Assembly (NCBI GenBank): GCA_025453395.1
Contig: JALOQK010000002.1
Coordinates: 21,625-85,624, forward strand
DNA: 64,000 nucleotides
Origin: Candidatus Omnitrophota bacterium
GTDB taxonomy: Bacteria > Omnitrophota > Gorgyraeia > Gygaellales > Profunditerraquicolaceae
Direction: 5' to 3'
A model generated the notes under the pieces. That model did no database searches and was not told the DNA's origin. It saw nothing but the letters and a program-made list of their open reading frames with translations. Shown one piece after another: positions 4,599 through 63,250 of the stretch (positions within the stretch are counted from its first letter, which is position 1; each line of letters opens with the position of its first letter). The translations under genes were made by a program, and so were the position numbers.

Positions 4599-4691
4599 TC
4601 AGCTATCAGCTTTCAGCTAAAAGCGTAAAGCTTAAAGCGAAAAACTAAAACTTAAAGCGAAAAATGAAAAGCAAAAACTAAAAGCGAAAAA
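4599..4691. repeat. heptanucleotide-periodic simple repeat (ATCAGCT / AAAAGCG / TAAAGCT units)
   Basis: Sequence reads atcagct atcagct ttcagct aaaagcg taaagct taaagcg aaaaact .. with strict 7-nt phase. Intergenic between dus and the next gene. The same units recur inside recG. Confidence 0.8.
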
Positions 4692-4697
4692 GGAAGA

Positions 4698-5177
4698 ATG
4701 GATATGAAAAAAATAGAATTAATGTTAACGGCATTCATTGCGGCAGGGATTTTCTTGTCTAGCGCGCAGGCTTCGGAAATAAAAGTAGAGGCGCAGGTGG
4801 ATAAGAAAGCAATGACTACGGATGAAGCGCTTACCTACAAAATAAGCGTTTCTTCTTTGGAAAACAAGCTTCCCGAAATAAAGCTTCCTGATTTTGCAGG
4901 CTTCACAGTAATTTCGCAGGCGCAATCAAGCTCATTTAACTTTTCTTCTGGAAAGGCCAATAATAGCGCGGTATTTATATATGTTTTAGCTTGTTTGAAG
5001 GTAGGGAAATTGGAGATCAAACCAGCTTCAGTAAAAATAGGAAAAGATACATTTACCACAGAATCTTTTGTTATAGAAGTAAAGCAAGGTAAGAATCCCT
5101 TAAGATCAAGGCCAGAAAAGCAAGATAATGCTTTGCCGGAAGAATTTACTTCTGACCGCCCGCAATACGCATTATAA
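4698..5177 (+). CDS. secreted protein, BatD-like N-terminal domain candidate
   Basis: Signal peptide followed by a pattern resembling the BatD N-domain (..LPEIKLPDFAGFTVISQAQSSS..KVGKLEIKPASVKIG..). Weak call. Confidence 0.3.
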   Translation: MDMKKIELMLTAFIAAGIFLSSAQASEIKVEAQVDKKAMTTDEALTYKISVSSLENKLPEIKLPDFAGFTVISQAQSSSFNFSSGKANNSAVFIYVLACLKVGKLEIKPASVKIGKDTFTTESFVIEVKQGKNPLRSRPEKQDNALPEEFTSDRPQYAL

Positions 5178-5182
5178 AGCTT

Positions 5183-7321
5183 ATGGAAAATAATCCGCTT
5201 GAGCAGTCTGTCCAGTATCTAAAAGGGGTCGGCCCGGCACGCCTTAAATTGCTGCAGAAAATAGGGGTTAATTCTTTAGAAGACCTTTTGTATTATTTCC
5301 CCCGCCGCTATCAAGACCGCAGGAATTTTATTCCAATAGCAGCTTTAGAGCAAGGCCAAGTTCAGGCAATTAGAGCTAAGATTATTTCTTGTTATCAGCG
5401 CAGTTCTTTTTACCGCCGCGGGTTTAAGATAACTGAAATCGTTGCCGCAGATAAAAGCGGGAAAATTACCTGTGTCTGGTTTAACCAGCCCTACATTAAA
5501 AATTATTTGAAGATCGGCGAGGAAGCTATTTTCTACGGCAGAGTGGGGAGTTTTGGCAAGAAACTGCAGATGCACTCTCCGGAATTTGAAGTCTTATCTG
5601 TTGGCGAAGATGCGCAAGCAAATAGCGACAGCCTTATGCCGGTGTATTCTTTGCCGGATTCTATCACCCAGAGATATTTCCGGGATCTTATAAAATTAGT
5701 GATAGATGCCTATTTGCCAAAGCTGCATGATTTTATTCCTTATAGTATGCGTCAGCGTAATAATTTGTTAAACCTTGCCAAGGCGCTGGTAAGTATTCAT
5801 TTTCCTGCTGATCAAGAGGCGCGGGCCTTAGCCTATCAACGCTTGGCCTTTGATGAATTCCTGTTTTTCCAAATACCGCTGGCTTTAAGAAAACATCGCA
5901 GGAAAGAAGAACAGGGTATCGCCCATAAAACAGAAGGGGGCTTAGTGGATTGTTTCCTGCGCGGGTTAGGTTTTAAGCTAACTTCTTCGCAGGAGCAGGT
6001 TTTAAAAGAGATCAAGAAAGATATGGCCAGCCCTCAAGTTATGCAGCGGCTTTTACAGGGCGATGTTGGTTCAGGCAAGACCGTGGTAGCTACAGCTTCT
6101 TGCCTAATGGCTGTTCAGGGAGGCTTTCAGGCGGCATTTATGGTGCCTACGGAAATCTTGGCGAGACAGCATTATGAGAAAATAAGCTCTCAGCTTTCAG
6201 CTATCAGCCGTCAGCCTTCAGCTATCAGCCGTCAGCCTTCAGCTATCAGCTTTCAGCTAAAAGCAATAAAAGTGGCTTTACTAACTAGTGCGTTGAATAA
6301 GAAAGAAAAAGAGAAAATATATCAAGGCATAAAAAATGGAGCAATAAATTTGGTGATTGGCACGCACGCTTTACTGCAGCAACAGGTTGAATTTAAGAAT
6401 CTGGGGCTGGTGGTTATTGATGAACAGCATAAATTCGGCGTGGGTCAGCGAGCGTTATTGCCGCAAAAAGGAAAAAGCCCGGATATTCTGATCATGACCG
6501 CCACCCCTATCCCGCGGACTTTAGCAATTACCATTTATGGGGATTTGGATGTTTCTGTTATTTCGGAGTTACCTGCGGGCAAGGGCAAGATTAAGACCAT
6601 GAATTTTTCCGTCGGGCAAGAAAAAGCGGCCTATAGTTTGGCTAAAAAAGAGCTTGAGGCAGGCCGTCAGGCGTATATTATTTATCCGGTTATTGAAGAG
6701 TCTTATGCTTTGGATATGGAGGGCGCCAAGAAAAAATACGCGCAATTAAGTTCCGGAGATTTTAAACAATACCGCTTAGGGCTTATCCATGGCAGGCTTG
6801 ATGACAAACAGCAGAATCAATTGATGCAGGATTTCCGGGATAAGAAATTAGACATTCTTGTTTCTACCACTATTCTGGAAGTCGGGATTGATATCCCCAA
6901 TGCTACCTGTATAATCATTGAGAATGCCGAACGTTTTGGCTTGTCGCAGTTACATCAATTGCGGGGGCGGGTAGGAAGAGGCAAAGATGACGCCTATTGT
7001 TTATTGATTGCCAATACTTCTACTGTTGAAGCCAAGGCGCGCATGGAGGCAATGGTAAATTATAGCGATGGTTTTCATATTTCCGAGGAAGATTTAAGAA
7101 TCCGGGGGCCGGGTGAATTCTTCGGCATGCGCCAGCATGGCCTAAGCCAGCTTAAGATCGCCAATCCTCTGACCCAGATGCAGCTTTTAAAGAAGGCGCG
7201 TGATGAGGCACTGCGTTTGATTAATGACGATGCGGGGCTTGTTGCCAAAGACAATGTCTTGATCAGGCAGCGTTTATTCAAGGCCTTTCCGGAATATGAA
7301 AATTTAATACTCACGGGATAA
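5183..7321 (+). CDS. recG: ATP-dependent DNA helicase RecG
   Basis: Wedge domain, Walker A GDVGSGKT, DEQHKFGV, and QLHQLRGRVGRG helicase motif VI. Carries an in-frame repeat-derived insert at 6181..6262. Confidence 0.9.
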   Translation: MENNPLEQSVQYLKGVGPARLKLLQKIGVNSLEDLLYYFPRRYQDRRNFIPIAALEQGQVQAIRAKIISCYQRSSFYRRGFKITEIVAADKSGKITCVWFNQPYIKNYLKIGEEAIFYGRVGSFGKKLQMHSPEFEVLSVGEDAQANSDSLMPVYSLPDSITQRYFRDLIKLVIDAYLPKLHDFIPYSMRQRNNLLNLAKALVSIHFPADQEARALAYQRLAFDEFLFFQIPLALRKHRRKEEQGIAHKTEGGLVDCFLRGLGFKLTSSQEQVLKEIKKDMASPQVMQRLLQGDVGSGKTVVATASCLMAVQGGFQAAFMVPTEILARQHYEKISSQLSAISRQPSAISRQPSAISFQLKAIKVALLTSALNKKEKEKIYQGIKNGAINLVIGTHALLQQQVEFKNLGLVVIDEQHKFGVGQRALLPQKGKSPDILIMTATPIPRTLAITIYGDLDVSVISELPAGKGKIKTMNFSVGQEKAAYSLAKKELEAGRQAYIIYPVIEESYALDMEGAKKKYAQLSSGDFKQYRLGLIHGRLDDKQQNQLMQDFRDKKLDILVSTTILEVGIDIPNATCIIIENAERFGLSQLHQLRGRVGRGKDDAYCLLIANTSTVEAKARMEAMVNYSDGFHISEEDLRIRGPGEFFGMRQHGLSQLKIANPLTQMQLLKKARDEALRLINDDAGLVAKDNVLIRQRLFKAFPEYENLILTG
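6181..6262 (+). repeat. heptanucleotide repeat array embedded in frame in recG
   Basis: Sequence cagcttt cagctat cagccgt cagcctt cagctat cagccgt cagcctt cagctat cagcttt cagctaa, encoding ..SQLSAISRQPSAISRQPSAISFQLKA.. The 21-nt (3-unit) block is duplicated. The terminal agctatcagctttcagctaaaagc is identical to the intergenic element at 4599. Confidence 0.85.
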
Positions 7322-7324: not shown

Positions 7325-7879
7325 ATGCGTATTACAAGCGGCATTTACAAGAATCGTAAGCTTAAGATGCCTGCAGGTATTCGTCCGACACAGGAGAAAA
7401 CCCGCAAGGCCATATTTGATATTATGGGCGATATATCGGGCTTGAGGTTTTTGGAGCTTTTTGCCGGGTCAGGGGCGGTAGGTTTTGAGGCTTTGTCGCG
7501 GCAAGTTGAAGAGGTGGTCTTAGTGGAAGATAGCCGCGCCTGCCAAAAGGTGATTCAGGAGGCTATCCGGGATTGGAAAATCCCGAATTGTTCGCTTTTG
7601 CCTTTGCCTGTTCCCAAAGCCATAGAAATACTGGTGAAAAATAACGATAGATTTGATATTATCTTTATGGACCCCCCGTATTACCAGGATTGGGCAAAAA
7701 AAATCTTGCAAAGCCTATCCTCTTGTGATATATTAGCGCCCAATGGTTTTGTGGTTGCCCAGACGCACAAAACAGAGAATCTCCCTGATTGTCAGGGAGG
7801 TTTAATTTTGTTTAAGCGCTCTGTTTATGGAGATACGGTTCTTTGGTTCTATAAAAACAAGTTAAATGAGGTTACATAA
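7325..7879 (+). CDS. rsmD: 16S rRNA (guanine966-N2)-methyltransferase RsmD
   Basis: ..KTRKAIFDIMG.. LFAGSGAVGFEALSR .. DPPY motif. Confidence 0.8.
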   Translation: MRITSGIYKNRKLKMPAGIRPTQEKTRKAIFDIMGDISGLRFLELFAGSGAVGFEALSRQVEEVVLVEDSRACQKVIQEAIRDWKIPNCSLLPLPVPKAIEILVKNNDRFDIIFMDPPYYQDWAKKILQSLSSCDILAPNGFVVAQTHKTENLPDCQGGLILFKRSVYGDTVLWFYKNKLNEVT

Positions 7880-7960
7880 GGTTACATGGGGTTAATTGAG
7901 GTTGCCTTTGCAACGTCATGTAACATCATTTAACATCATGCAACTTCAGATAACCTATAT
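7855..7960. repeat. palindromic element built from ~10-bp GGTTACATGA-type units (family B, copy 1)
   Basis: Left arm gttaaatgag gttacataag gttacatggg gttaattgag gttgcc, then its approximate reverse complement tgcaacgtca tgtaacatca tttaacatca tgcaacttca. Confidence 0.75.
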
Positions 7961-10116: not shown

Positions 10117-11094
10117 ATGAATAGTGTCGGAATAATCGGAATAGGAAAATACCTGCCGAAAAAGGTCCTTACAAATCAGGACTTGGAAAAAATGGTGGAT
10201 ACTTCCGATGAATGGATTACTACCCGCACCGGAATTCAAGAAAGGCGTATTGCCGCGAAGAATGAAGCGTGTTCGGATTTAGCTTTAAAAGCAGCGCAGG
10301 ACGCTTTAAGTGATTCCAAAATAAACCCTTTAGATTTAGATCTGATTATTGTGGCAACTGTTACCGCGGATATGCATTTCCCTTCGGTGGCCTGTATTGT
10401 GCAAAGCAATCTGGGGGCTAAAAACGCTATTTGTTTTGATGTAAGCGCTGCCTGTGCCGGGTTTATCTACGCGCTTATAGTCGCCAAGCAATTTATTGCC
10501 CGCGGAAGCGTTAAGCATGCTTTAGTCATCGGAAGCGAGGTAATGTCTTATATTACTGATTGGACAGACAGAAATACTTGTGTTCTTTTCGGGGATGGTT
10601 CAGCGGCAGCAGTCTTGGGGCAGGTTAAGTCTGGGGGGATTATCGCCAGCCACTTAGGCTCTGATGGCTCAGTGCATGATATCTTAAATGTCCCTGCCGG
10701 AGGGTCCCGGATGCCTTTGACCAAGGATAATATTGATAAAAACATGCAATATATTAAGATGCGCGGCAATGAATTATTTAAGATGGCGGTTAATGCCATG
10801 AGCGACGCGGCTAAAAAGGCCCTGGAAAAGGCGCATTTAAAAGTAGAGGATGTGAATTTACTTATTCCGCATCAGGCGAATCAGCGCATTATTGCCGCGG
10901 TAGCCAAAAAATTGAACTTGAGCATGGATAAAGTATACCTTAATATAGCCCGTTACGGTAATATGTCTTCGGCTTCTGTGGCTGTGGCTTTATGCGAAGC
11001 GGTAAAAGAAGGCCGGATTAAGAAAGGCGATATCATTGTTTTAGATTCTTTTGGCGCGGGGCTTGTTTGGGCAGCTTGTGTTATAAAATGGTGA
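10117..11094 (+). CDS. fabH: 3-oxoacyl-ACP synthase III
   Basis: Active-site Cys in AACAGF, His/Asn motifs, ..GAGLVW.. C-terminus. Confidence 0.9.
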   Translation: MNSVGIIGIGKYLPKKVLTNQDLEKMVDTSDEWITTRTGIQERRIAAKNEACSDLALKAAQDALSDSKINPLDLDLIIVATVTADMHFPSVACIVQSNLGAKNAICFDVSAACAGFIYALIVAKQFIARGSVKHALVIGSEVMSYITDWTDRNTCVLFGDGSAAAVLGQVKSGGIIASHLGSDGSVHDILNVPAGGSRMPLTKDNIDKNMQYIKMRGNELFKMAVNAMSDAAKKALEKAHLKVEDVNLLIPHQANQRIIAAVAKKLNLSMDKVYLNIARYGNMSSASVAVALCEAVKEGRIKKGDIIVLDSFGAGLVWAACVIKW

Positions 11095-11104
11095 TTTTGT
11101 ATTT

Positions 11105-11139
11105 GCTGATAGCTGATAGCTGATGACTGAAAGCTGATA
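11105..11139. repeat. heptanucleotide repeat (GCTGATA units)
   Basis: gctgata gctgata gctgatg actgaaa gctgata. This is the reverse-complement orientation of the ATCAGCT family. Confidence 0.75.
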
Positions 11140-13087: not shown

Positions 13088-13112
13088 CGTGTAGATAATA
13101 ACAAAAAATAAT

Positions 13113-13151
13113 GTTACCCCGCCTTTATTTATCATGGCGGGGTAACTTTTG
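13113..13151 (+). terminator. rho-independent terminator candidate after acpP
   Basis: Perfect 11-bp stem gttaccccgcc / ggcggggtaac, 12-nt loop, followed by tttt. Confidence 0.6.
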
Positions 13152-14466: not shown

Positions 14467-15762
14467 ATGGGCTATACAATAGCTGAAAAAATCTTAATGG
14501 CGCACGCCGGAAAAAAGGATATTCATCCGGGTGAGTTTATTGAAGCCAAAGTCGATATCGCTTTAGGCAATGATATTACCGCGCCTTTGGCGATTGAAGA
14601 ATTTAAGAAGACAGGAGTAAAGAAAGTATTCGATAATAAGAAAATAGTTCTGGTGCCGGATCATTTTGCCCCTGCTAAAGATTTAAAAAGCGCCAATCAA
14701 TGCAAAATTCTGGCTAATTTTGCCCAAGAGCAAAAGATCAAGAATTATTTTGAGGTAGGTTGTATGGGCATAGAGCATGCCCTCTTGCCGGAAAAAGGGA
14801 TAGTCGGGCCCGGATATTTGGTGATCGGGGCCGATTCTCATACCTGTACCTATGGGGCCTTAGGCGCTTATGCTACTGGGGTTGGCTCAACGGATTTAGC
14901 GCGCGCTTTCATAGACGGGGAATGCTGGTTTAAAGTTCCGGCATCGGTTAAATTTGTTTATAAAGGAAAATTAAAGAAGTGGGTTGGCGGGAAAGACCTT
15001 ATACTTTTTACTATTGGGCAGATCGGTGTTGATGGGGCCCTGTACAAAGCAATGGAATTTACCGGCCCTGTTATAGATAAGCTTCCCATGGATGATCGTT
15101 TTTCTATGTCAAATATGGCCATAGAAGCCGGAGCCCGGGCAGGGTTGATTAACCCGGACGAGATTACTTTAAGTTATATGGAAGAAAGTCAAAAGTCAAA
15201 AGTCAAAAGTCAAAAGTTCAGAGCAAAAGTTAAAAGCTTAAGATCAGATGATGATGCTGTATATGAGAAAGTTTATGATTGGGATGTGAGTAATTTAGAG
15301 CCGCAGGTCGCCTGTCCGCATTTACCAAGCAACACTAAACCTGTGGGAGAGTTGAGTAATATTACTGTTGACCAGGTAGTCATTGGTTCTTGCACTAACG
15401 GCAGGATTGCTGATTTGCGCACCGCAGGCAAGATTCTAAAGGGCAAGAAAATAAAACCTGGTTTGCGTTTGATTGTTATCCCGGCAACCCAGAAAATCTA
15501 TCTGGAAGCAGTCCAAGAGGGTTTGGCAGAAATATTTGTCAAAGCAGGCGGGGTTTTCTCTACGCCTACCTGCGGCCCGTGTTTAGGCGGACATATGGGT
15601 ATTTTAACTGAAGGCGAAAGGTGCCTGGCCACAACCAATAGAAATTTTATTGGCAGGATGGGGCATCCTAAATCCGAGGTTTATTTGTCAAGCCCCGCGG
15701 TCGCCGCCGCAGCGGCAGTTACAGGAAGGATTACGCATCCCGAAGAAATAAATAAACAATAA
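14467..15762 (+). CDS. leuC: 3-isopropylmalate/homoaconitate-type dehydratase large subunit (short archaeal-type LeuC)
   Basis: [17 protein letters not shown].., aconitase-family Cys ligands (GSCTNGR, CGPCLG). A small-subunit gene follows. Carries an in-frame heptamer repeat insert. Confidence 0.75.
15183..15240 (+). repeat. AAAAGTC heptamer repeat array in frame inside leuC
   Basis: aaagtc aaaagtc aaaagtc aaaagtc aaaagtt cagagca aaagtta aaagctt, encoding ..[18 protein letters not shown].. Confidence 0.8.
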
Positions 15763-15862
15763 CCAATACCCAAATCTGTTTGGTCAATTGGTTATTGATT
15801 ATTGGGTATTGTTTGGTGTTTCCAGATTTGGTGTTTGGTGATTAAATAAACAGGTATAGCTA
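15763..15862. other. structured ~100-bp spacer between leuC and leuD with inverted repeats
   Basis: ccaatacccaaatctg .. cagatttgg and ttgggtattg segments are mutually complementary. This is unusual for a large/small subunit pair, which are normally translationally coupled. Confidence 0.4.
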
Positions 15863-23660: not shown

Positions 23661-24686
23661 ATGATCAATGCCGGAATTGTCGGGGCAAGCGGTTATACCG
23701 GAGAAACCCTTTTAGGTATTCTTCTGAAGCACCCCTTTGTGCGCTTAAGTTATCTTTCCCGGGGCCAGGATAAAGAACAGAAGATATCTGAGCTGTTTCC
23801 TAAATTTGAGAAAATAAGCGGCCTCTCCTGCGGGCCGACGGATATCAAGCAAATAAAAGAAAAATGCGATGTGGTTTTCTTGGCTATGCCGCATACCGCT
23901 TCCATGAGCCTGGTGCCGAAGCTTATTTCTTGCGGCAAAAAGGTCATAGATTTAAGCGCGGATTATCGCATAACCGATTATAGGCTTTACGAGAAATCTT
24001 ATCAGGTTAAGCATACGGATAAGGCCAATTTAAAGCAGGCAGTTTACGGACTGCCGGAGCTTTATCGCAATAAAATAAAAACCGCCAGTTTAATCGCCAA
24101 CCCCGGATGTTATCCCACAGCGGCAGTTTTGGCATTAGCGCCGCTTTTGGGCCTTGGGGTTATAGAAAAAGACAATATTATTATAGACGCTAAGTCCGGG
24201 ATAAGCGGCGCAGGGAAGAAAATGTCGGAGGGATTTTTGTTTAACGAGGCCAATGAGGATTTTAAGGCCTATAAGGTAAACAGCCATCAGCATGCTCCGG
24301 AGATAAATCAGATCTTGTCACGGCTGACAGGCAGGAAGACAGAAATTATTTTTGTGCCGCATCTTTTGCCTTTGTATAGGGGGATATTGGAAACTATATA
24401 TGTAAAGAGGTCGGAAGTCAGAGGTCGGAAGTCAAAAGGCAATATAATCGAGTTGTATAAGAAATTCTATAAGGATGAGCCGTTTGTCAGGATTAAGAAG
24501 GACGCGGAATTCCCGCGCCTAAAAGATGTGCAGGGGACAAATTTCTGCGATATCGGGATAAAGGATTGCGGAAGTAATATTATTATTATTTCTGCTATTG
24601 ATAACCTGATCAAGGGGGCTTCTGGACAGGCAGTGCAGAATATGAATATTATGTATAACTTTCCTCAAGAGACCGCGCTTCTATGA
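23661..24686 (+). CDS. argC: N-acetyl-gamma-glutamyl-phosphate reductase
   Basis: AGIVGASGYTGETL .. active-site Cys region PGCYPTA. Carries an in-frame heptamer insert at 24417..24441 (RSEVRGRKSKG). Confidence 0.9.
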   Translation: MINAGIVGASGYTGETLLGILLKHPFVRLSYLSRGQDKEQKISELFPKFEKISGLSCGPTDIKQIKEKCDVVFLAMPHTASMSLVPKLISCGKKVIDLSADYRITDYRLYEKSYQVKHTDKANLKQAVYGLPELYRNKIKTASLIANPGCYPTAAVLALAPLLGLGVIEKDNIIIDAKSGISGAGKKMSEGFLFNEANEDFKAYKVNSHQHAPEINQILSRLTGRKTEIIFVPHLLPLYRGILETIYVKRSEVRGRKSKGNIIELYKKFYKDEPFVRIKKDAEFPRLKDVQGTNFCDIGIKDCGSNIIIISAIDNLIKGASGQAVQNMNIMYNFPQETALL

Positions 24687-27875: not shown

Positions 27876-27900
27876 AAGCGTAAAGCGAAAAGCGAAAAAA
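27871..27900. repeat. AAAAGCG heptamer repeat
   Basis: aaaagcg taaagcg aaaagcg aaaaaat. Confidence 0.7.
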
Positions 27901-27923
27901 TAAAACAAATACGAGGCAAAGAC

Positions 27924-28844: not shown

Positions 28845-28892
28845 GCTGTAAGCTATAAGCTGTAAGCTGAAGACTGATAGCTGACAGCTGGA
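28836..28892. repeat. GTAAGCT / GATAGCT heptamer repeat
   Basis: gtaagct gtaagct ataagct gtaagct gaagact gatagct gacagct. Overlaps the argF stop. Confidence 0.75.
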
Positions 28893-30084: not shown

Positions 30085-30200
30085 AAAATGGGTGAGGTTG
30101 TATAAGGTTACATGAGGTTAAATGATGTTACATGAGGTTGCAAAAAGCTTTAAAGCAACTTCATGTAACCTTCGGTAACTTCATGCAACTTTAATTAACC
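30085..30200. repeat. family B palindromic element (copy 2)
   Basis: aggttacatg aggttaaatg atgttacatg aggttgcaaaaagc ttt aaagcaactt catgtaacct tcggtaactt catgcaactt. Confidence 0.75.
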
Positions 30201-39088: not shown

Positions 39089-39099
39089 AACAAAAACAA

Positions 39100-39165
39100 G
39101 GGGACGGTTCTATTTTTAAATAACTATTAAAGGTAGAAAAATAGAACCGTCCCCAAGTTTTCTTT
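39100..39165 (+). terminator. long hairpin terminator after the small basic gene
   Basis: 18-bp perfect stem ggggacggttctattttt / aaaaatagaaccgtcccc followed by a T-rich tract. Confidence 0.65.
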
Positions 39166-39170
39166 CTAAT

Positions 39171-41996
39171 ATGACTTCCAATATCATCATTCGCGGCGCC
39201 AAGGAACATAACTTAAAAAACATTTCTTTAGAGCTTCCGCGCAATAAATTGATTGTGGTTACCGGTTTATCCGGCTCAGGTAAATCAAGCCTTGTGTTTG
39301 ATACTATCTATGCCGAAGGCCAGCGCCGCTATGTGGAAAGCCTTTCCAGCTACGCCCGGCAGTTTTTAGGTCAGCTTCAGAAACCGGATGTGGAGTATAT
39401 TGAAGGCCTTTCTCCGGCAATTGCTATTGAACAAAGGACTGCTGGCGGTAACCCCCGTTCCACGGTAGCTACCCAAACCGAAATCTACGATTATTTGCGC
39501 CTTCTTTTTGCGCGTATCGGAGAGGTATCCTGTTATCAATGCGGCAGGTTTGTGAAGCGCCAGAGCGCCCAAGAGATCGTCCAGCAGGTTATGGAATTAG
39601 GCGAAGGCGCAAGCATTCAGATTTTAGCAAAAGTAATAAGCGGTAGAAAAGGGCAATATCGGCAGGAGTTTTCAAATCTTAAGAAGGCAGGTTTTATCCG
39701 CGCGCGCGTCGATGGTAAAATATATGAGTTGGATCAAAAAATAAATTTAGATAAATATAAAGCGCATAACATAGAAGTTCTGGTAGACAGGCTGACCATT
39801 GCGCCGGCTGTAAAGCCGCGGCTTACTGATTCCATAGAAACCGCGTTAAAGGCAGGCCAAGGCATTGTGGTTGTTGCCGCCAAGCTTTCTAGCGGTAAAG
39901 AAGCCGAATCAGTATATAGCCAGCACTATGCCTGCACAAACTGCGGCATAAGTTATACGGAAGTCCAGCCGCGCATTTTTTCTTTTAATTCTCCTTATGG
40001 GGCCTGCCCGGAATGTAACGGCTTGGGTACAAAATTTGAGTTTGACCTGGATTTGATCATCCCGGAGAAAGATAAATCTATCAATCAGGGCGCGCTTGCC
40101 GTCTGGAGGAGAGGCGGACGAGGCTATATTATGTATTACCGCTGGCTTTTGCGCGAGTTATCGCGCGAACTGGGGTTTAGTCTGGACACGCCTTTTAATA
40201 AGCTTAAGAAAGACACCCAGAAAGCGATCCTTTATGGTACGGATATCGAAATCGGCAGTAAGCCTTTTGAGGGGGTTATCCCGCACTTAGAAAGGCTTTT
40301 TAGGGACACCGACAGCGATTATTTAAAGCATGAAATATCCAAATTTATGTCTACGCTTGCCTGTCCGGGCTGTAATGGCGCGCGCCTTAAGAAAGAAAGC
40401 CTCAGCGTTAAGATAAAGGGCAAGAATATTTGGGAAGTAGCTCAGATGCCGATAAATAAGGCAAAGGAATTTTTCTCTTCCCTTAATTTAAGCGCCAAAG
40501 ATAAACTTATTGCCGCAGAATGCTTGAAACAGATAAATCAGCGTTTGCAGTTTTGTATTGATGTGGGGCTTGATTATTTAACTTTAGAGAGAAAAAGTTC
40601 CACTCTTTCCGGAGGAGAGGCGCAGCGAATCCGGCTTGCCACTCAAGTGGGTTCGCGCTTGGTAGGAGTTTTGTATGTTTTAGACGAGCCCAGTATCGGC
40701 CTGCACCAGCGGGATAATATTAAGCTTCTTTCAACATTGGAATCTTTGAGGGATTTAGGCAATACGGTATTAGTGGTGGAGCATGATGAATATACCATAA
40801 GAGCCGCTGACTATGTTGTGGATTTAGGCCCGGGCGCGGGGCTTCATGGAGGGCATGTAGTTTTTGCCGGTACCAATAAACAATTGCTGGAGAATAAACA
40901 GTGCTTAACCGCTAAATATTTACGCCGCGAATTGGATATTCCCATTCCAGAAAGCCGCCGCACTTTTGATCCTAATAGGGCCATTGAAATTAAAGGCGCC
41001 CGGCAGCATAACTTAAAGAATATTGATGTCAAATTTCCCATAGGCGCTTTTATTGCTGTGACAGGCGTTTCCGGTTCGGGGAAATCAACGCTTATAGAGG
41101 ATATACTGTATCGGGGGTTGAATCAGAAGATCTACAGTTCCCGCGAGAAACCCGGAGCGCACGATGAACTATTAGGGGCAGACCTTATAGACAAGGTTAT
41201 TGTCGTGGATCAGTCGCCTATTGGAAGAACGCCCCGTTCCAACCCCGCTACTTACACAGCAGTGTTTAGCCATATCCGTGATTTATTCAGCCGGCTTCCG
41301 GAAGCTAAGATGCGCGGATATAAGCCGGGAAGGTTTTCTTTTAATGTTAAAAGCGGGCGCTGTCAGGCATGCATGGGAGATGGAATCAAGAAAATAGAGA
41401 TGCATTTCTTGCCGGATGTCTATGTGAAATGCGATATCTGCAAGGGCAGGCGTTTTAATGATGCTACTTTAGAGGTTAAATATAAAGGAAAATCCATTGC
41501 TGATGTCTTGGAGATGACCGTCGAAGAAGCGGTTGTATTGTTTGAGAATATCCCGGTAATTAAAAATACCCTGTCATATCTGTATGATGTGGGTTTGGAA
41601 TATGTTCAATTGGGCCAGTCCTCCACTACTCTTTCCGGAGGCGAGGCGCAAAGAATTAAGCTTGCCAGTGAATTAAGCAAGCGTTCAACCGGGAAGACCT
41701 TATATATACTTGATGAGCCGACCACGGGCTTACATTTCGCGGATGTGCATAAGCTTATTACTGTGCTGCAGCGGCTGGTGGATAAAGGCAATACGGTTAT
41801 TGTTATTGAACATAATTTGGAAGTAGTAAAATGCGCGGATTATATTATTGATTTAGGGCCTGAAGGCGGCGATAAGGGGGGAGAGCTTGTTTTTTGCGGA
41901 ACCCCGGAAGATTTAGCAGGGTCAAAGAAATCCTATACGGGAGAGTTTTTAAGAAAGATATTGAAGGCGGGAAAAGGAAGTGATATAGTGAAATAA
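39171..41996 (+). CDS. uvrA: excinuclease ABC subunit A
   Basis: Two ABC ATPase modules ([20 protein letters not shown]), zinc fingers, LSGGEAQR signatures. 941 aa. Confidence 0.95.
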
Positions 41997-42000
41997 GTAA

Positions 42001-42030
42001 AAAGTCAAAAGTAAAAAGTCAAAAGTAAGA
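42001..42030. repeat. AAAAGTC heptamer repeat (intergenic)
   Basis: aaagtc aaaagta aaaagtc aaaagta agaag. Confidence 0.7.
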
Positions 42031-42044
42031 AGATTAAATTAAAA

Positions 42045-46595: not shown

Positions 46596-46802
46596 ATGAT
46601 CACTGAAATCGGAATTATTGCCGGAGATATCTGGCATTTCCTTGACCAGCACGGAGAGGTTTCTTTGGAAAATCTTGTCAAGGGCATAGATAAATCTCGT
46701 GATAATGTGCTGATGAGTTTAGGTTGGCTTGCCCGTGAGGGTCATGTCCTTGTGCAATCGCAAGGAAGCGGCTATACCGTGTGCTTAAGGAAAAATGATT
46801 AG
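46596..46802 (+). CDS. small winged-helix-like protein (DUF2582-like)
   Basis: 68 aa. IAGDIWHFLDQHGEVSLENLVKGI .. SLGWLAREGHV pattern recalled from small wHTH proteins. Ribosome-binding site aaggagg upstream. Confidence 0.4.
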   Translation: MITEIGIIAGDIWHFLDQHGEVSLENLVKGIDKSRDNVLMSLGWLAREGHVLVQSQGSGYTVCLRKND

Positions 46803-47193
46803 GGTCCATCTCCAAAGATCAAGCGTGCTGCTTGTTACCTTATTTATTGTGCTTATCGCGGTGATCTTGGCGCAGGTTATGTTATCTATTCTAAGAAGCC
46901 ACTCCCGCCTTTCCCATCATCAAGTAAGCAGGATCCAGGCCCAGTATGCTGCCATGGCAGGGGTGGTTTATGCTTATGATAGCTTAAGAAGTGGGCATTT
47001 GTCATCTAGCGATTGCCCAGAAGGTAATTCAAATCCAAAGTGCCGGGTAGATGATAATAATTTCCCCGTTTGCATAAAGGATAAAAGAGTAAAAATTATT
47101 CTTTGCCCCGCAGGCGCCACCTGTGCGGGTAAAACCTGCCCTGTCTCAAATAATCTCTGCATCTATTCTACCGCAGAGTATACCTATAATTAA
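46795..47193 (+). CDS. membrane-anchored Cys-rich protein of unknown function
   Basis: N-terminal TM VLLVTLFIVLIAVILAQV. C-terminal domain with 8 Cys (CPEGNSNPKC .. CIKD .. CPAGATCAGKTCP .. C). Confidence 0.35.
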   Translation: MIRVHLQRSSVLLVTLFIVLIAVILAQVMLSILRSHSRLSHHQVSRIQAQYAAMAGVVYAYDSLRSGHLSSSDCPEGNSNPKCRVDDNNFPVCIKDKRVKIILCPAGATCAGKTCPVSNNLCIYSTAEYTYN

Positions 47194-47290
47194 GTCTAAG
47201 TAAGTCTAAGTAAATCTATCGTATTTCTGTTAGTCATCTTTTCCGGCGGAGTATACTGCTATAAGTAAGTCCAAGTAAGTCTGCATAAAA
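47194..47290. repeat. TAAGTC-based short tandem repeats
   Basis: taagtctaagtaagtctaagtaaatcta .. taagtaagtccaagtaagtctg. Unit length differs from the 7-nt family. Confidence 0.6.
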
Positions 47291-56679: not shown

Positions 56680-56680
56680 A

Positions 56681-56900
56681 AAAGCGCAAAACTAAAAGCG
56701 CAAAGCGTAAATCGATAATCCAAAATTCAAAATTTTTAATTTTACGCTATAGTTTTACCTGCCTGCCGGCAAGGCAGGCGTTTTTCGCTTTACATTTTAC
56801 GCTATATAAGACAAAAATCGTCTAACTTTTATGTATTTGGCTGATAGCTGAAAGCTGATAGCTGATAGCTGAAAGCTGATATAATTTGACTGAACTTATG
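56681..56900. repeat. family A heptad-periodic palindromic element plus GCTGATA repeats (copy 1)
   Basis: aaaagcg caaaact aaaagcg caaagcg taaatcg ataatcc aaaattc aaaattt ttaattt tacgcta tag .., inner hairpin ctgcctgccggcaaggcaggcg, then gctgata gctgaaa gctgata gctgata gctgaaa gctgata. Confidence 0.8.
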
Positions 56901-56958: not shown

Positions 56959-57031
56959 GGGGCTGTAGCTCAGTTGGGAGAGCGCCTCGTTCGCAACGAG
57001 GAGGCCAGCGGTTCGATCCCGCTCAGCTCCA
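56959..57031 (+). tRNA. tRNA-Ala (anticodon CGC)
   Basis: 73-nt cloverleaf with 7-bp acceptor stem including G3:U70, D-loop agttggga, anticodon loop ttCGCaa, T-loop ttcgatc. CCA is not encoded. Confidence 0.9.
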
Positions 57032-57162
57032 CTTAATGAGCCCAAAACTTACGGAAGCGATAGCGACGTAAGTTTTATGGGCGAATTAACTCCGACGAAT
57101 GCCCGAAAATTTACGTAAGGAAATTTTCGGAGCGTTTATGAGTCGGAGCAGATAATAGCGTA

Positions 57163-58650: not shown

Positions 58651-59385
58651 ATGAGAAGATTTTTCTGCCCTTCGGAGAATATCAGGAATAATAAAATATG
58701 CATTAGTGACAAAGATACGCTTCATCATATAAAAGATGTCTTGCGCATGAAGCCAAAAGACGAAGCAGTTATTTTTAGTGAAAAATCCGATGAATTTAAA
58801 GCCTGTCTGGAATCTGTGGATGAAGAAAAGGCCCAGTTTTTTATTAAGCAAGCTTTGATGCCCTCAAAAGAGCAGTTACTTAAGATTACGGTTTGTTGCG
58901 CTATTCCCAAAAAAGCCAAGATGGATGAAATTGTGGATAAGCTTACTCAGCTTGGTGTAGAGAAGATTATTCCGTTAGCCAGCGACCATGTGATCGGGCG
59001 CATGGACAAACAAAGGCAAAAGGAAAAAGTCGCGCGCTGGCAAAGGATCGCTAAAAGCGCCAGCCTCCAAAGCCAGAGGAATATCATACCGGTTGTAGAA
59101 GAGATTAAAACCGTGGATGAGGCGCTTAAAGAAAACAATGCTTTTGACCTTAAGGTCATTGCTAATTTAGCCAATCGCCCCAAATTCCTAAAAGATGTTT
59201 TTTCCCCGGATAAGCACAAGAGGATTCTTGTTTTTATCGGTCCAGAAGGTGATTTTTCCGCGCGGGAAATAAATTTGGCCTTAGAAAATTCCTGTGTTGC
59301 GGTTTCCCTGGGAGAAACTACCCTTAGGGTGGATACCGCGGCGATTGCGGTGGTAAGTTATATAAAGCTTAGTAACGCGTGTTAG
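58651..59385 (+). CDS. rsmE: 16S rRNA (uracil1498-N3)-methyltransferase RsmE
   Basis: RFF.. N-terminus, PUA-like domain, C-terminal SPOUT knot motif VFIGPEGDFSAREI .. SLGETTLRVDTAAIA. Confidence 0.75.
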   Translation: MRRFFCPSENIRNNKICISDKDTLHHIKDVLRMKPKDEAVIFSEKSDEFKACLESVDEEKAQFFIKQALMPSKEQLLKITVCCAIPKKAKMDEIVDKLTQLGVEKIIPLASDHVIGRMDKQRQKEKVARWQRIAKSASLQSQRNIIPVVEEIKTVDEALKENNAFDLKVIANLANRPKFLKDVFSPDKHKRILVFIGPEGDFSAREINLALENSCVAVSLGETTLRVDTAAIAVVSYIKLSNAC

Positions 59386-59390
59386 CTAAA

Positions 59391-59480
59391 AATTAAAAGC
59401 GCAAAGCGTAAAACGATAATCCAAAATTCAAAATTTTTAATTTTACGCTATAGCTTTTCGCTTTTCGCTTTACGCTTTTA
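59391..59480. repeat. family A heptad-periodic palindromic element (copy 2)
   Basis: aaaagcg caaagcg taaaacg ataatcc aaaattc aaaattt ttaattt tacgcta tagcttt tcgcttt tcgcttt acgcttt. Left and right arms are reverse complements. Confidence 0.8.
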
Positions 59481-59488
59481 GCTTATTT

Positions 59489-60724
59489 ATGAAAAAGACC
59501 ATTAAATTTTATACCCTCGGCTGTAAGGCCAACCAATACGAAACACAGAGCATAAGAGAATACTTTTTGAATAATGGTTTTAGCGAGAAAGAAGGTAGCG
59601 CTAAAGCAAATGTCTATGTTATTAATACCTGTACGGTAACTTCCAAGGCTGACAGCCAATCGCTTAATATTATCCGCCGCCTGCGCAAGGAAAATCCAAA
59701 GGCTAAAATTATTGTTACCGGGTGTTTGACTGAATTAGACGCGGATAAAATTAAACAAGCCTGCCAGGTTGATTCCATTATTAAGAATAAAGACAAAAAT
59801 AAGATTTCCCAATCCATTTCATATTTTAAAAACCATACCCGCGCTTTCTTAAAAGTGCAAGACGGCTGTAATTATTTCTGTTCGTATTGTAAAGTGCCTT
59901 TGGTGCGCGGGCGTTCTCAAAGCCGGGATTTTAATCAGATCATTTCCGAAGCCGAGAGGCTTTCGGCCAATGGCTATAAGGAAATTGTTTTAACCGGCAT
60001 TTGCCTGGGCTCTTATCAGGATTTGGCAAAATTAGTAAGCACTTTAGAGAAAATCCCTGGGTTGCTGCGTTTAAGATTAAGCTCCATTGAGCCGCAAGAT
60101 ATAAAAGATGATCTAATAAAAGTTATCAAGAATTCTTCGGTTTTATGCCGGCATTTGCATATTCCGTTACAAAGCGGAGATGATAGTATTCTAAAGAAAA
60201 TGCGCCGGCGTTACAGCAGCAAAGATTTTTTGCGGTTAGTTAAGAAAATCCGCAAGAATATCCCCGGCATTGCCATTACTACCGATTGTTTAGTGGGGTT
60301 TCCCGGCGAAACAAAAGAGAATTTTCAGAATACTGTAAAATTGATAAAAGAAATAAATCCTCTTAAGGTGCATATCTTTCCGTATTCGCCGCGGCCAGGC
60401 ACGCAAAGCTACCTAAAATATAAAACGCAAGTTGATTTAGAAGAAGTAAAAGAAAAATGCCGCATGCTTGAGGCAGTAAACTCTAATCAAGCCAAGAAAT
60501 ACTTACGTAAATTCTTAAATAAGCCGATGGATGTTCTAATAGAGGGCAAGGTTAAAGGCGCAAGCGAATTTTGGCAGGGGCATACTTCAAATTACATAAA
60601 AGTGCTTGTGGATTCCAAGGAAAATTTGTATAATAAAATAATAAAAGTTGCGCCTAATAAGCTTAAGAATGAGTGTTTGCAAGCTATAAGCTATAAGCGT
60701 AGAGCGAAAAATGCAAAACCATAA
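59489..60724 (+). CDS. MiaB-like tRNA/ribosomal methylthiotransferase (MTTase domain + radical SAM + TRAM)
   Basis: N-terminal MTTase Cys triad (LGCKAN, NTCTV, TGCL), radical-SAM CNYFCSYC, C-terminal TRAM-like domain. 411 aa. Confidence 0.75.
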   Translation: MKKTIKFYTLGCKANQYETQSIREYFLNNGFSEKEGSAKANVYVINTCTVTSKADSQSLNIIRRLRKENPKAKIIVTGCLTELDADKIKQACQVDSIIKNKDKNKISQSISYFKNHTRAFLKVQDGCNYFCSYCKVPLVRGRSQSRDFNQIISEAERLSANGYKEIVLTGICLGSYQDLAKLVSTLEKIPGLLRLRLSSIEPQDIKDDLIKVIKNSSVLCRHLHIPLQSGDDSILKKMRRRYSSKDFLRLVKKIRKNIPGIAITTDCLVGFPGETKENFQNTVKLIKEINPLKVHIFPYSPRPGTQSYLKYKTQVDLEEVKEKCRMLEAVNSNQAKKYLRKFLNKPMDVLIEGKVKGASEFWQGHTSNYIKVLVDSKENLYNKIIKVAPNKLKNECLQAISYKRRAKNAKP

Positions 60725-60860
60725 TTCAAAACTTAAAATTTTAAATTTTACGCTATAGTTTTACGCTTTGCGCTTTAAGTTTTTAGTTTTTAAGGTTTTG
60801 AATTTTTAATTATGGCTTTTAGCTCTTAGTTTTTAGCTTACAGCTTACAAGGAGGCTGAT
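60725..60860. repeat. family A element (copy 3) with core in both orientations
   Basis: ataattcaaaacttaaaattttaaattttacgctatag .. ttttgaatttttaattatgg (reverse complement of core) .. tagctta cagctta. Confidence 0.75.
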
Positions 60861-61349: not shown

Positions 61350-61520
61350 TCATTCCAATATAGCCTGCATAGATAAATTTATGCATTTATTTGTAAGATT
61401 GCCTTCTTTTTTGCGTCTAATAGCGTAAGAGAGGAGGTTTTTTATGTCTACCATTAAAGTGTCAAGTTAAATCCCAAATCCAAATAATACCAAATCCCGG
61501 ATTGTCTGGTATGAGTAAAT

Positions 61521-61590
61521 GACGGTAGCGAAAAGTGTAAAGCGAAAAATGTAAAAGTATAATTTAAAATTAAAAACAGAAAGAGAGAAA
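61521..61590. repeat. family A element fragment (copy 4)
   Basis: agcgaaaagtgtaaagcgaaaaatgtaaaagtataatttaaaattaaaaac. Confidence 0.6.
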
Positions 61591-61955
61591 TGAACAGCCA
61601 GAATTTGAAATTAAAAGATAGGGCATATCAGTATTCTGTAAAAATAATTGAGTTTCTGGATATATTACCCAAAGATACATCAACCCAGGTTATTTTGAAG
61701 CAACTATTAAGGTCAGCTACTTCTATAGGAGCAAATATTATTGAAGCACAGGCCTCAAGCTCAAAGAGAGATTTTACTAATTTCTTCAGTTATTCTCTTA
61801 AATCTGCTAATGAGAGTTTGTATTGGTTGAGTTTATTAAAAGATGCTAGGAAAGTAGGTAATCCTCAATTAGGGTATCTTTTGGTTGAAACTCAAGAATT
61901 AGCAAATATACTAGCAGCGAGTATTTTGACCTTAAAAGGTAAGAATAAGTTTTGA
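61590..61955 (+). CDS. four-helix-bundle protein (TIGR02436 / 23S rRNA intervening-sequence protein family)
   Basis: ..AYQYSVKIIEFLDILPKD .. LLRSATSIGANIIEAQ .. SLKSANESLYWLSLLKD pattern of this family. Confidence 0.7.
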   Translation: MNSQNLKLKDRAYQYSVKIIEFLDILPKDTSTQVILKQLLRSATSIGANIIEAQASSSKRDFTNFFSYSLKSANESLYWLSLLKDARKVGNPQLGYLLVETQELANILAASILTLKGKNKF

Positions 61956-62000
61956 ATTTTTAATTATAGTTTTTAGCTTTAAGCTTTAAGCTGAGCATAC
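61951..62000. repeat. family A element fragment (copy 5, core in reverse orientation)
   Basis: ttttgaatttttaattatag tttttagctttaagctttaagctgagc. Confidence 0.6.
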
Positions 62001-62094
62001 AACTTGCAGCTGTTTTTTGCTTTGACAGGGACCAAGAGCTGTCTTATAATAGAACTCTTGTATTGCTATTATCATAATAAAATGGAGGATTTAA

Positions 62095-63144
62095 ATGAGC
62101 GCGGAAAAGAAAAAAGAAGAGCATAAGAAAGAAGAGCACAAGAAGGAAGAGGCCAAAGAATTATCCAATCGTCAAAAGGCGCTGGAGCTGGCGCTTGCCC
62201 AGATTGAGAAACAGTTTGGCAAAGGTTCAATTATGAAAATGGGAAGCGAAACCCGCTTTGATGTGGAGGCTATCCCTACCGGAGCCCTGACTTTAGATTT
62301 AGCTTTAGGTGTTGGAGGCCTGCCAAGAGGAAGGGTCATTGAGATTTTTGGGCCAGAGGCTTCTGGTAAAACGACTCTTACTTTAAGCGTAATTAAAGAG
62401 ATCCAGAAAAAAGGCGGGGTGGCGGCTTTTATTGACGCGGAGCATGCCTTTGATTCCACATATGCCAAAGTCGTGGGTATTAATCTGGATGATCTTTTGA
62501 TTTCCCAGCCTGACACCGGTGAGCAGGCGCTGGAGATTGCCGAGACCCTGGTGCGCTCCAATGCCGTGGATTTAGTGGTCATAGATTCAGTGGCGGCTTT
62601 AACTCCCAGGGCGGAAATTGAAGGCGAGATGGGTGATTCGCATGTGGGGCTGCAGGCGCGGCTTATGTCGCAGGCTTTAAGAAAACTTACCGCGGCTATC
62701 TCTAAATCCCGCACCTGTGTTATTTTCATTAACCAGCTGCGCGAGAAGATCGGGGTAATGTTTGGCTCTCCGGAAACTACTCCCGGAGGCAGAGCCTTAA
62801 AGTTTTATTCTTCGGTCAGGCTTGACTTAAGAAGGATCCAGACTTTAAAACTCGGCGAACAAGTAGTCGGTAACCGCGTCAGGGCAAGGGTAGTTAAGAA
62901 TAAAGTCGCCCCTCCTTTTAGAGAGGCGGAATTTGAGACGCTGCATAACGAAGGAATAGCCAAGGTAAATACCATTTTGGACGCGGCAGTGAATTTAGAG
63001 ATCGTGGAGAAATCCGGCACTTGGCTTTCTTTTGCCGGAGAGAAACTGGGGCAGGGCCGTGACGCGGCAATTAAGCTGTTAAGGGAAAAGTCCAAGATCG
63101 CGGATGATATTGAGAAGGAAGTCAGGAAGAGAATATCTTTGTAG
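62095..63144 (+). CDS. recA: recombinase RecA with Lys/Glu-rich N-terminal extension
   Basis: ..[24 protein letters not shown].. Walker [11 protein letters not shown]1/L2 loops. Extra N-terminal [21 protein letters not shown]. Confidence 0.95.
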
Positions 63145-63250
63145 CGTAAAGTGTAAAGCGAAAAACTAAAAGTTATAATTCAAAATTCAAAAGTTTTTAA
63201 TTTTGCGTTATAGTTTTACGCTTTTAGCTTTAAGTTTTTAGCTATCTAAA
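63145..63250. repeat. family A heptad-periodic palindromic element (copy 6)
   Basis: gcgtaaagtgtaaagcgaaaaactaaaagttataattcaaaattcaaaagtttttaattttgcgttatagttttacgcttttagctttaagtttttagcta. Confidence 0.8.

Follow-up and report, generated by a model that had tools for sequence, protein, structure and literature searches.

A heptanucleotide tandem-repeat system in an Omnitrophota genome, part of it arranged around a PF05635 gene

Heptanucleotide tandem repeats are over-represented in several bacterial groups, and their origin and function are not established (PMC4692102, PMC4679880). Heptameric long simple sequence repeats (SSRs) are built of GGGAATC and GGGGAYT units in Xanthomonas/Nostoc (PMC4692102) and of TAACTGA units in Beggiatoaceae/Bacteroidetes (PMC4679880), and in Nostoc PCC 7120 the array (TTTTGAA)3 is reported upstream of recF and 20 other genes, for which an unidentified heptamer-binding partner has been postulated (10.1101/2022.06.06.494920). 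Heptamers also accompany the intervening sequence (IVS) in the 23S rRNA of Coxiella, in which an S23p open reading frame (ORF) is enclosed by a terminal inverted-repeat stem that RNase III cuts; two to three GACAGAT units lie directly upstream of this ORF, and their number varies among strains (PMC4990558). Avd, the accessory protein of diversity-generating retroelements, is listed under the protein family PF05635 (PMC10053308). In another type of system, the REP-associated tyrosine transposases (RAYTs) have been linked to repetitive extragenic palindromes (REPs) through their flanking by inverted repeat copies (PMC3116915). In this study, a 64-kb stretch of a Candidatus Omnitrophota genome (contig JALOQK010000002.1; hereafter the window, meaning the whole 64,000 nt analysed) was found to carry many heptanucleotide arrays, some of them bracketing a PF05635 gene. 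We consider, with a probability of about 60%, that they represent a system of the type known in the cyanobacteria Calothrix and Nostoc as short tandemly repeated repetitive (STRR) sequences, in which AAAGCG/CGCTTT arrays form the arms of an IVS-like cassette and slippage acts genome-wide. No literature on such heptamer repeats in Omnitrophota was found, and the Coxiella IVS study was the only one found that links PF05635 genes to heptamer arrays, although journals beyond the search may differ.

The window (42.5% G+C) contains ordinary housekeeping operons, including recG, fab genes, leuCD, argCJBDFGH, lysA-dapFAB, uvrA, mtaB and recA. The top relatives of its RecG among GTDB species genomes are Candidatus Omnitrophota metagenome-assembled genomes at 54-62% identity, and scans of genomes and metagenomes with RecG and DapF returned no relative above 57-64% identity. 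All of the approximately 69 credible genes in the 64 kb lie on the plus strand with very short spacers, an unusually long co-directional run.

Tandem Repeats Finder (TRF) returned about 35 rows of period 7, 14 or 21, matching every coordinate given in an earlier sequence-only reading of this DNA, and all 11 of the intergenic sites that it had listed were recovered. Its claim that tandem 7-nt sites are numerous at this locus was borne out by a lag-7 scan with a cut-off of at least 16/21 matches, which found 24 regions in the 64 kb against 0-1 per shuffle in 30 third-order Markov shuffles; at a stricter 17/21, 18 regions were found at period 7 and none at periods 4, 5, 6, 8, 11, 12 or 13. Period-7 sequence covers 15% of the non-coding bases (616/4093) but only 0.7% of the coding bases (427/59907), an approximately 20-fold difference, and about 12 of the 27 spacers of at least 25 nt hold a heptamer array (about 16 of 27 when the decamer arrays described below are counted as well). 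The unit form NNNAGCN, proposed from the sequence, proved to be partly right: 14 of the 24 consensus units have an AGC/GCT core, for which 14.7% would be expected (binomial P=1e-6), while about ten arrays have other cores, with units such as AAAGTCA, AATAACC, GGGTTAT and TCTGTCC. The same division applies to the idea of one repeat family, for which the AGC-core units and the continuous register speak. When the palindromic elements are written in register, the 7-nt phase runs unbroken across their whole length including the AT-rich core, as had been stated, and it is also maintained through a nested 21-nt terminator hairpin and through a 180-nt composite element.

The period-7 excess predicted for the genome at large was also found in 830 kb of related metagenome loci (L082-L161; L-numbers are labels of comparison loci in other genomes, metagenomes and plasmids), which contain 106 arrays of period 7, 5 of period 4, 4 of period 5 and 8 of period 6. 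Units resemble each other slightly more within loci than between loci (mean best match 4.40 versus 4.09, permutation P<0.002), a small effect. Period-8 arrays are enriched in the same 830 kb as well (42, with several in some loci), so the short-period tendency of the clade is not strictly 7-nt. An assembly artefact could be ruled out, because the arrays are <110 nt long, shorter than a sequencing read, recur in independent assemblies and have counterparts of the same type in finished plasmids of cultured strains. A codon-usage artefact was ruled out too, since the arrays are 20-fold denser outside genes and those inside genes are insertions relative to orthologues. The sites are thus a genuine heptanucleotide tandem-repeat system of STRR type and have the properties of heptameric long SSRs, namely head-to-tail 7-nt units in at least three copies at many loci, a period-7 excess and a mostly intergenic location. 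They are not STRRs in the strict sense, that is, in a cyanobacterial host and with the published units, the host being a member of Omnitrophota and the units AAAGCGN, ATCAGCT and similar ones.

The organising feature, which the sequence-only reading did not contain, is a gene cassette located between an unassigned 162-aa ORF and recA:

61521-61589, plus strand: left arm of the full cassette, alignable with the left arms of E1-E4 (the palindromes without an ORF, listed below) and predicted to pair with the right arm.
61590-61955, plus strand: PF05635/TIGR02436 gene of 121 aa, the cargo of the cassette, recognised by profile matches and homologues.
61947-61998, plus strand: right arm of the full cassette, which aligns with the right arms of E1-E4 and with the solo arm E6R (listed below).

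The product of 61590-61955 matches Pfam PF05635 over residues 5-109 of its 121 (E=9.9e-21; 74.4 bits against a cut-off of 33.8) and NCBIfam TIGR02436 (E=6.5e-24; 84.2 bits against a cut-off of 24), and the nearest solved structure is PDB 2RLD (E=1.2e-16; five chains in the entry). Judged by these matches, it is a four-helix-bundle protein of the 23S rRNA intervening-sequence protein/S23p family, which takes its name from ORFs within 23S rRNA IVSs. It has more than 5400 homologues, the top ones being 75-83% identical and very numerous in metagenomes, and the cassette protein also occurs on an NCBI contig labelled Candidatus Omnitrophica. The left arm stays in register up to the ATG (AGCGAAA AGTGTAA AGCGAAA AATGTAA AAGTATA ATTTAAA ATTAAAA ...), and the right arm begins within the last codons of the gene (AAGTTTT GAATTTT TAATTAT AGTTTTT AGCTTTA AGCTTTA AGCTG). 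The 70 nt upstream of the ORF align with the left arms of E1-E4, and the 50 nt from its last codons onwards with their right arms. In both the minimum free energy and the centroid prediction for the cassette RNA (61510-62005, 496 nt) the left arm pairs with the right arm around the ORF, and the predicted arm-to-arm duplex has a z-score of -4.35. The predicted fold therefore has the stem-enclosing terminal inverted repeats of an IVS, while the insertion is not in a 23S rRNA helix; an Rfam scan of the window returned only tRNA-Ala(CGC) at 56959-57032, with no rRNA and no element matching an Rfam family. No reverse transcriptase was found among the immediate neighbours of the gene (the 162-aa ORF and recA), the rest of the window not having been scanned and template and variable repeats not having been searched for. 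Directly 3' of the right arm, 45 nt upstream of recA, lies a perfect sigma-70 consensus promoter (TTGACA, 17 nt, TATAAT; 12/12) at 62022-62050.

Five further elements of the window have arms of the same kind and lack the ORF:

56680-56810, plus strand: E1, palindrome with AAAGCGN arms and an AT-rich core (0 mismatches in the core; RNA fold z -3.56).
59386-59488, plus strand: E2, palindrome between the rsmE-like gene 58651-59385 and mtaB (z -2.24; 98 nt of unbroken register).
60681-60795, plus strand: E3, palindrome whose left arm overlaps the 3' end of mtaB (57-nt arms, 72% complementary; z -3.25).
63140-63250, plus strand: E4, palindrome starting from the recA stop codon (3 mismatches in the core; z -1.98).
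60796-60860, plus strand: E6R, solo right arm that keeps the 3' end of the PF05635 gene, 'GTTTTGA', followed by (AGCTTAC)n, as seen from alignment and register.

E1-E4 share one layout, an AAAGCGN left arm, a conserved 24-nt core, AAAATTTTTAATTTTACGCTATAG (0-3 mismatches, where none is expected by chance), and an NCGCTTT right arm. As RNA, they are predicted to fold better than shuffled sequences (z -2.0 to -3.6), which supports the long hairpins that had been proposed for the arrays in so far as these four are concerned; many other arrays are direct, and the one at 4589-4697 has no RNA structure (z +0.52). Nested in the right arm of E1 is a G+C-rich, intrinsic-terminator-like hairpin with a T-run (56758-56785), which is a 21-nt insertion relative to the other copies, so that the 7-nt register of E1 is preserved. 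Because both arms are homologous to those of the cassette and E6R retains GTTTTGA, E1-E4 look like ORF-less versions of the PF05635 cassette, while several of the direct arrays of AAAGCG type resemble one of its arms on its own. Solo arms that retain the 'GTTTTGA' end of the gene were also found in L002 and L154, and L102 has an ORF-less palindrome with arms of this type. ORFs upstream of a heptamer arm often run into it and take their last codons and stop from it, as at mtaB (60681-60724), argD (27861-27875), uvrA (41989-41996), recA (63140-63144) and porA of L165, L177 and L178; the resulting lysine-rich C-terminal tails are probably by-products of the repeats that are visible in annotation. 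The most conserved part of the palindromes contains TTCAAA-N16/17-TATAGT (9/12 to the sigma-70 consensus) at 56726-56753 and 63186-63214, which faces the downstream genes and may, on this weak match, be an outward promoter.

The association between PF05635 genes and heptamer arrays extends well beyond the window. Eight further Omnitrophota-type cassettes are co-oriented inside pyrB/pyrC, pyruvate:ferredoxin oxidoreductase (PFOR) alpha/beta (three species), methylase/metG, aroA and proC operons; in these, (AAAAGCG/AAAATGT/AAAACGN)n leads into the ATG, and the TGA is followed by ATTTTnAAnTAnnG(TTTTCGC)n. In plasmids (tblastn, 72,556 plasmids), PF05635 was found in only 28 records, 15 of them from Nostoc and the rest mostly from other cyanobacteria, mainly filamentous. 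All 14 of the plasmid genes inspected, from Nostoc, Planktothrix, Dolichospermum, Gloeocapsa, Aulosira, Anabaena, Pseudanabaena, Euhalothece, Bernardetia, Chlorohelix and Treponema, lie between heptamer arrays whose units differ from lineage to lineage:

Three Nostoc species: CAATTCG upstream, CGAATTG downstream.
Dolichospermum: CGTAATT upstream, AATTACG downstream.
Aulosira: TTCAAAA upstream, TTTTGAA downstream.
Gloeocapsa: TTTTAGA upstream, TCTAAAA downstream.
Planktothrix: CCCCAAT/CGTAAAT upstream, their complements downstream.
Euhalothece: CAGTTAC upstream, GTCACTG downstream.
Bernardetia: TTAGTGA (>15 copies) upstream, remnants of its complement downstream.
Chlorohelix and Treponema: similar arrangements.

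In a set of 22 cassettes spanning five phyla (Omnitrophota, cyanobacteria of Nostocales and other groups, Chloroflexota, Bacteroidota and Spirochaetota), both flanks reach at least 9/14 matches at lag 7 in 22/22, whereas only 1/360 random position pairs reaches 10. In 18 of the 22, the units on the two sides are reverse complements of each other at no fewer than 5/7 positions. Of the only three heptamer arrays in 49 kb of pNPUN02 of N. punctiforme, two flank the PF05635 gene, and four of the seven on a 50-kb Planktothrix plasmid surround the one there. The sequence-only reading had named STRR as the closest analogy and had regarded the inverted arrangement and the occurrence inside essential genes as points of contrast. 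The analogy is apt, but the contrasts do not hold: Nostoc, Dolichospermum, Aulosira and other cyanobacteria have gene-flanking inverted heptamer arrays, and inverted heptamer pairs of Xanthomonas were already on record (PMC4692102). TTTTGAA, the flanking unit of the Aulosira gene, is also the inner unit of the arms in the window. Tentatively, and as a suggestion that we rate as unlikely, PF05635 proteins could be the cognate partner of heptanucleotide repeats, binding their own bracketing arrays and maintaining, propagating or exploiting them. If so, STRR-type arrays across phyla would be the dispersed footprint of a pairing with PF05635, as REPINs, the REP doublets, are of RAYTs.

The PF05635 genes are repeatedly wedged co-oriented within operons, between the PFOR alpha and beta genes in L165, L177 and L178 and between pyrB and pyrC in L162. 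On cyanobacterial plasmids, their contexts include defence islands and CRISPR adaptation genes: the gene is next to cas1 in L191 and L192 (in L191 between cas2 and cas1), beside DUF1156/Swt1-HEPN in L189 and L195, and with a helicase next to a methylase or a large ORF in L182, L184 and L188. The DUF1156/HEPN context is accompanied by a TTTTAGA-type unit in Gloeocapsa as well as in Chlorohelix, a coincidence suggesting that the defence island moved together with the cassette. L173 has a PF05635 gene and left arm identical to those of L168-L172, with a different right arm and downstream gene; this junction could stem from a second copy in the genome, from recombination of one copy with another or from chimeric assembly at the repeat.

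The arrays inside genes are all in frame, in full-length housekeeping proteins:

6185-6258, plus strand: recG array of AGCTTTC/AGCTATC/AGCCGTC, 10.6 units, encoding SAISRQP three times.
15178-15236, plus strand: in-frame (AAAGTCA)7.6 in a length-variable loop of leuC (TRF, lag-7, relatives).
24406-24434, plus strand: 14-nt repeat AGAGGTCGGAAGTC x2.1 in argC, a weak member of the family (TRF).
32564-32603, plus strand: in-frame (AAAGCCA)3.6 in a length-variable loop of lysA (TRF, lag-7, relatives).
32913-32946, plus strand: dapF array of AAGCTTA, in frame, in a loop (TRF, lag-7).
33124-33156, plus strand: dapF array of TCAGCTG, in frame, in a loop (TRF, lag-7).
33527-33557, plus strand: dapF array of GCTTACA, in frame, in a loop (TRF, lag-7).

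Four of the five in-gene sites that had been named from the sequence (recG, leuC, lysA and dapF) stand as heptamer arrays, while argC has a 14-nt repeat with only weak heptamer substructure. Compared with orthologues, as had been suggested as a check, the four fall in loops whose length varies among relatives. The recG array, which has a 21-nt super-period (93% identity), occupies the loop between helicase motif I and the following strand. Its orthologues in L006, L007 and L009 have no insertion, the DNA of L006 reading ATC AGC TCG CAG at this place; those in L002, L004 and L005 have 21 extra bases, heptamer-periodic and at the same offset, and the window has 63. The comparison supports growth of the array from a native ATCAGCT in 21-nt steps, and with it the slippage that had been put forward as the source of the repeats. 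In dapF, 12 related genes have nearly perfect heptamer arrays at the same three loop offsets but with quite different units, including AGTCACA, CACCGCT, GCCAAAA, TATCCGC and TATACGC. The in-gene pattern is consistent with strong 7-nt duplication and homogenisation that is still going on, filtered by selection for the reading frame and for tolerant loops.

The mechanism that we propose would run as follows. The AAAGCG/CGCTTT arrays would be the inverted arms of an IVS-like palindromic cassette with a PF05635 gene; loss of the ORF would have left the 100-130-nt palindromes E1-E4, and loss of one arm would have left solo arms that fill operon spacers, often supplying the stop codon or a C-terminal tail of the upstream gene. 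Genome-wide, arrays would grow and homogenise in 7-nt steps by slipped-strand mispairing. Complementarity between the two arms would be maintained probably by hairpin-templated correction, or by selection on an RNA stem. Within genes, selection would purge arrays unless the net change is a multiple of 3 nt (typically 21 nt, 7 aa), and those that persist would sit in surface loops that tolerate insertions. When an operon is transcribed, its inverted arms would pair in vivo into a long, imperfect A/U-rich stem around the ORF or a short AT-rich loop, a putative substrate of RNase III. Since this topology is the same as that of the 23S IVS, which RNase III cuts, the elements are probably sites of RNA processing or stability, by which the cassette could lie between co-transcribed genes without doing harm.

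Several observations weigh against this interpretation. The z-score of the whole 496-nt cassette RNA is only -1.4, and the stems of the palindromes are A/U-rich with moderate z-scores. The derivation may run either way, by loss of the ORF or by entry of a gene into a pre-existing palindrome, and the ATCAGCT, AAAGTCA and AATAACC arrays are not demonstrably from cassette arms. No transposase, target-site duplication or comparison with empty sites demonstrates movement of the cassette or the palindromes. The gene at the PFOR site diverges in step with its neighbours (81-82% versus 82-86%), in keeping with vertical inheritance. Among near-identical contigs from 3-6 samples the arms did not vary in copy number, so slippage is not fast. 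Two distant PF05635 homologues on gut phage contigs have no heptamer flanks, so the link between the gene and the repeats is not universal. Two stronger statements are not upheld. That the cassette is far more conserved than its host genes and hence horizontally mobile was dropped, since LeuC and LysA of the relatives are also at 67-77% identity and the PFOR gene tracks its neighbours; that all arrays derive from cassette arms is unsupported, the units being unrelated in the ATCAGCT, AAAGTCA and AATAACC arrays and in dapF arrays from other genomes.

Some of the same observations could be read without any element. The arrays might be a mutational by-product of a replicase that slips preferentially by 7 nt, arising independently wherever they are tolerated and having no function, and the PF05635 gene would then simply occupy spacers that fill with arrays as others do; PMC4692102 attributes a polymerase-footprint idea for 7-nt slippage to a 2007 SSR survey. 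The seeding of the recG array from native coding sequence, the differences in units between related genomes and between sites, the abundance of arrays in the spacers of this genome (about 12 of the 27 of at least 25 nt) and the enrichment of octamer arrays in relatives (42 in 830 kb) all agree with such a process. However, it leaves unexplained the complementary flanking units at PF05635 genes in 18 of 22 cassettes from five phyla, the placement of two of the only three arrays in 49 kb of a Nostoc plasmid beside such a gene, the 24-nt core shared by E1-E4, the gene 3' end kept in solo arms and the excess of AGC cores (P=1e-6), and as a full account we hold it to be unlikely. A cis-regulatory function, in which the arrays would be protein or ribosome platforms near start codons (of S1, Csp or Csr type) or promoter modules, would suit the many arrays that end 0-25 nt from a start codon, the 9/12 match of the E1/E4 core to TTCAAA-N16/17-TATAGT and the co-orientation of the four palindromes and all Omnitrophota cassettes with their flanking genes; it has been proposed for TAACTGA in Beggiatoaceae (PMC4679880) and for (TTTTGAA)3 and (GACYAAT)8 in Nostoc PCC 7120 (10.1101/2022.06.06.494920). 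Against it, one unit occurs in both strand orientations upstream of genes (ATCAGCT at 4597; GCTGATA at 11105 and 56840), the spacing to the start codon is not constant, arrays also lie in coding loops and 3' ends, and promoter-like matches are only modestly above shuffles (34 versus 22.1, sd 4.6). This makes it quite unlikely as the general explanation.

That the elements are REP-like intrinsic terminators or 3' mRNA-stabilising hairpins is very doubtful: although hairpins stand directly 3' of stop codons, right arms are T-rich and the terminator hairpin in E1 is canonical and G+C-rich, the stems built of heptamers are imperfect, rich in A/U and placed within apparent operons of a 64-kb stretch that is plus-strand throughout, direct arrays make up half of the total and the one that was folded (4589-4697) is unstructured, and terminator-like sites do not exceed the shuffle expectation (13 versus 10.4). 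Heptamer SSRs cause phase variation in some pathogens. Contingency loci of this kind, in which 7-nt changes in copy number switch genes on and off, would be in keeping with the heptamer number that differs among Coxiella strains (PMC4990558), but the in-gene arrays are in the housekeeping enzymes recG, leuC, lysA and dapF and all in frame, and the arms do not differ among near-identical contigs taken from as many as six samples; we give this explanation hardly any credence.

The remaining spacers of the window hold further arrays. Six direct arrays take up the interval between the stop codon of a gene and the beginning of the following one, and one inverted pair lies between leuC and leuD:

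About 4591-4695, plus strand: direct (ATCAGCT)3 running in phase into (AAAGCGN)n, in the spacer before a BatD-like gene (TRF, lag-7); it looks like a solo left arm.
11094-11139, plus strand: direct (GCTGATA)5, the reverse complement of TATCAGC, between fabH and fabD (TRF, lag-7).
15746-15843, plus strand: inverted pair (AATAACC)n/(GGTTATT)n without AGC core, in the leuC/leuD spacer (RNA z -2.76).
27861-27909, plus strand: direct (AAAGCGA)n, overlapping the argD stop and preceding argF (TRF, lag-7).
28833-28890, plus strand: direct (AGCTGTA)n, from the argF stop to argG (TRF, lag-7).
41989-42034, plus strand: direct (AAGTAAA/AAGTCAA)n, from the uvrA stop to the start of a TPR gene (TRF, lag-7).
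56836-56884, plus strand: direct (GCTGATA/GCTGAAA)6, between E1 and tRNA-Ala (TRF, lag-7).

A second family, which the sequence-only reading had likewise passed over, is built of 10-nt units (GTTACATGAG / CTCATGTAAC) set in inverted arrays and occupies four spacers within operons (7854-7954, 30093-30205, 34558-34663 and 38651-38820). The hairpins predicted for it, with z -4.1 to -10.7 and energies down to -51 kcal/mol, are much stronger than those of the heptamer elements. The 830 kb of related loci contain almost no period-10 arrays (3), so the decamer arrays appear to be genome-specific. Direct decamer repeats (TAAGTAAGTC) at 47180-47223 and 47263-47281 flank a 40-nt segment; they are located at the 182-nt spacer after ORF 46795-47193. 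Two hairpins are of other, non-periodic kinds, one at 39086-39168 just upstream of uvrA (32-nt arms, 84% complementary) and a G+C-rich one at 13110-13149 after the acyl-carrier-protein gene, which is probably an ordinary terminator.

These observations add an uncultured phylum, Omnitrophota, to those with heptamer repeats, which are dense there and invade fixed surface loops of essential enzymes. They also link the repeats to a specific and widespread gene, as every stand-alone PF05635 cassette examined (22, five phyla) lies between heptamer arrays, usually inverted, which makes PF05635 a testable candidate partner for a class of repeats without an explanation. The 'intervening sequence' architecture, known from rRNA, is thereby carried over to ordinary operons. 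In practice, annotated proteins acquire 7-aa insertions and upstream ORFs acquire lysine-rich C-terminal tails through such arrays, and assemblies may break at PF05635 genes, a good number of the homologues being on very short contigs.

Among the known systems, the REPIN-RAYT pairs resemble this one in that inverted copies of the short palindromic repeat found between the genes of the genome stand on either side of a single gene and that non-autonomous palindromic doublets are dispersed. However, the gene here encodes a small four-helix bundle without a known catalytic motif, matching PF05635 only, rather than a Y1/HUH transposase, and in place of REPs of 20-40 nt that bear a GTAG/CGTC tag the repeats are tandem heptamers; the analysis gave no evidence of mobility. 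With regard to miniature inverted-repeat transposable elements, inverted arms and a related gene-bearing copy are present, but there is no transposase, and target-site duplications are unreadable in repeat-on-repeat contexts. Avd belongs to the same protein family, but no reverse transcriptase is adjacent here. With STRR sequences and heptameric SSRs, the arrays share about 3-10 tandem 7-nt copies, a strong period-7 excess over neighbouring periods, a mainly intergenic location near start and stop codons with occasional copies in ORFs, lineage-specific units and, in some cases, inverted pairs. They differ from them in the Omnitrophota host, in A/T-rich AGC-core units that are neither G-rich nor TAACTGA, in the main unit family, which forms the arms of a gene cassette and of ORF-less palindromes, and in the recurrence of arrays at fixed loops of housekeeping enzymes across species. 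The 23S IVS of Coxiella burnetii and Leptospira (PMC4990558) is similar in having an ORF of the PF05635 family in the loop of an inverted-repeat stem, heptamers upstream of the ORF and co-transcription with the host gene; in known IVS cases RNase III accepts the stem as a substrate. In contrast to the IVS, the cassette here stands between protein-coding genes in a window without rRNA, its arms are tandem heptamer arrays on both sides, and ORF-less and single-arm derivatives of it are dispersed.

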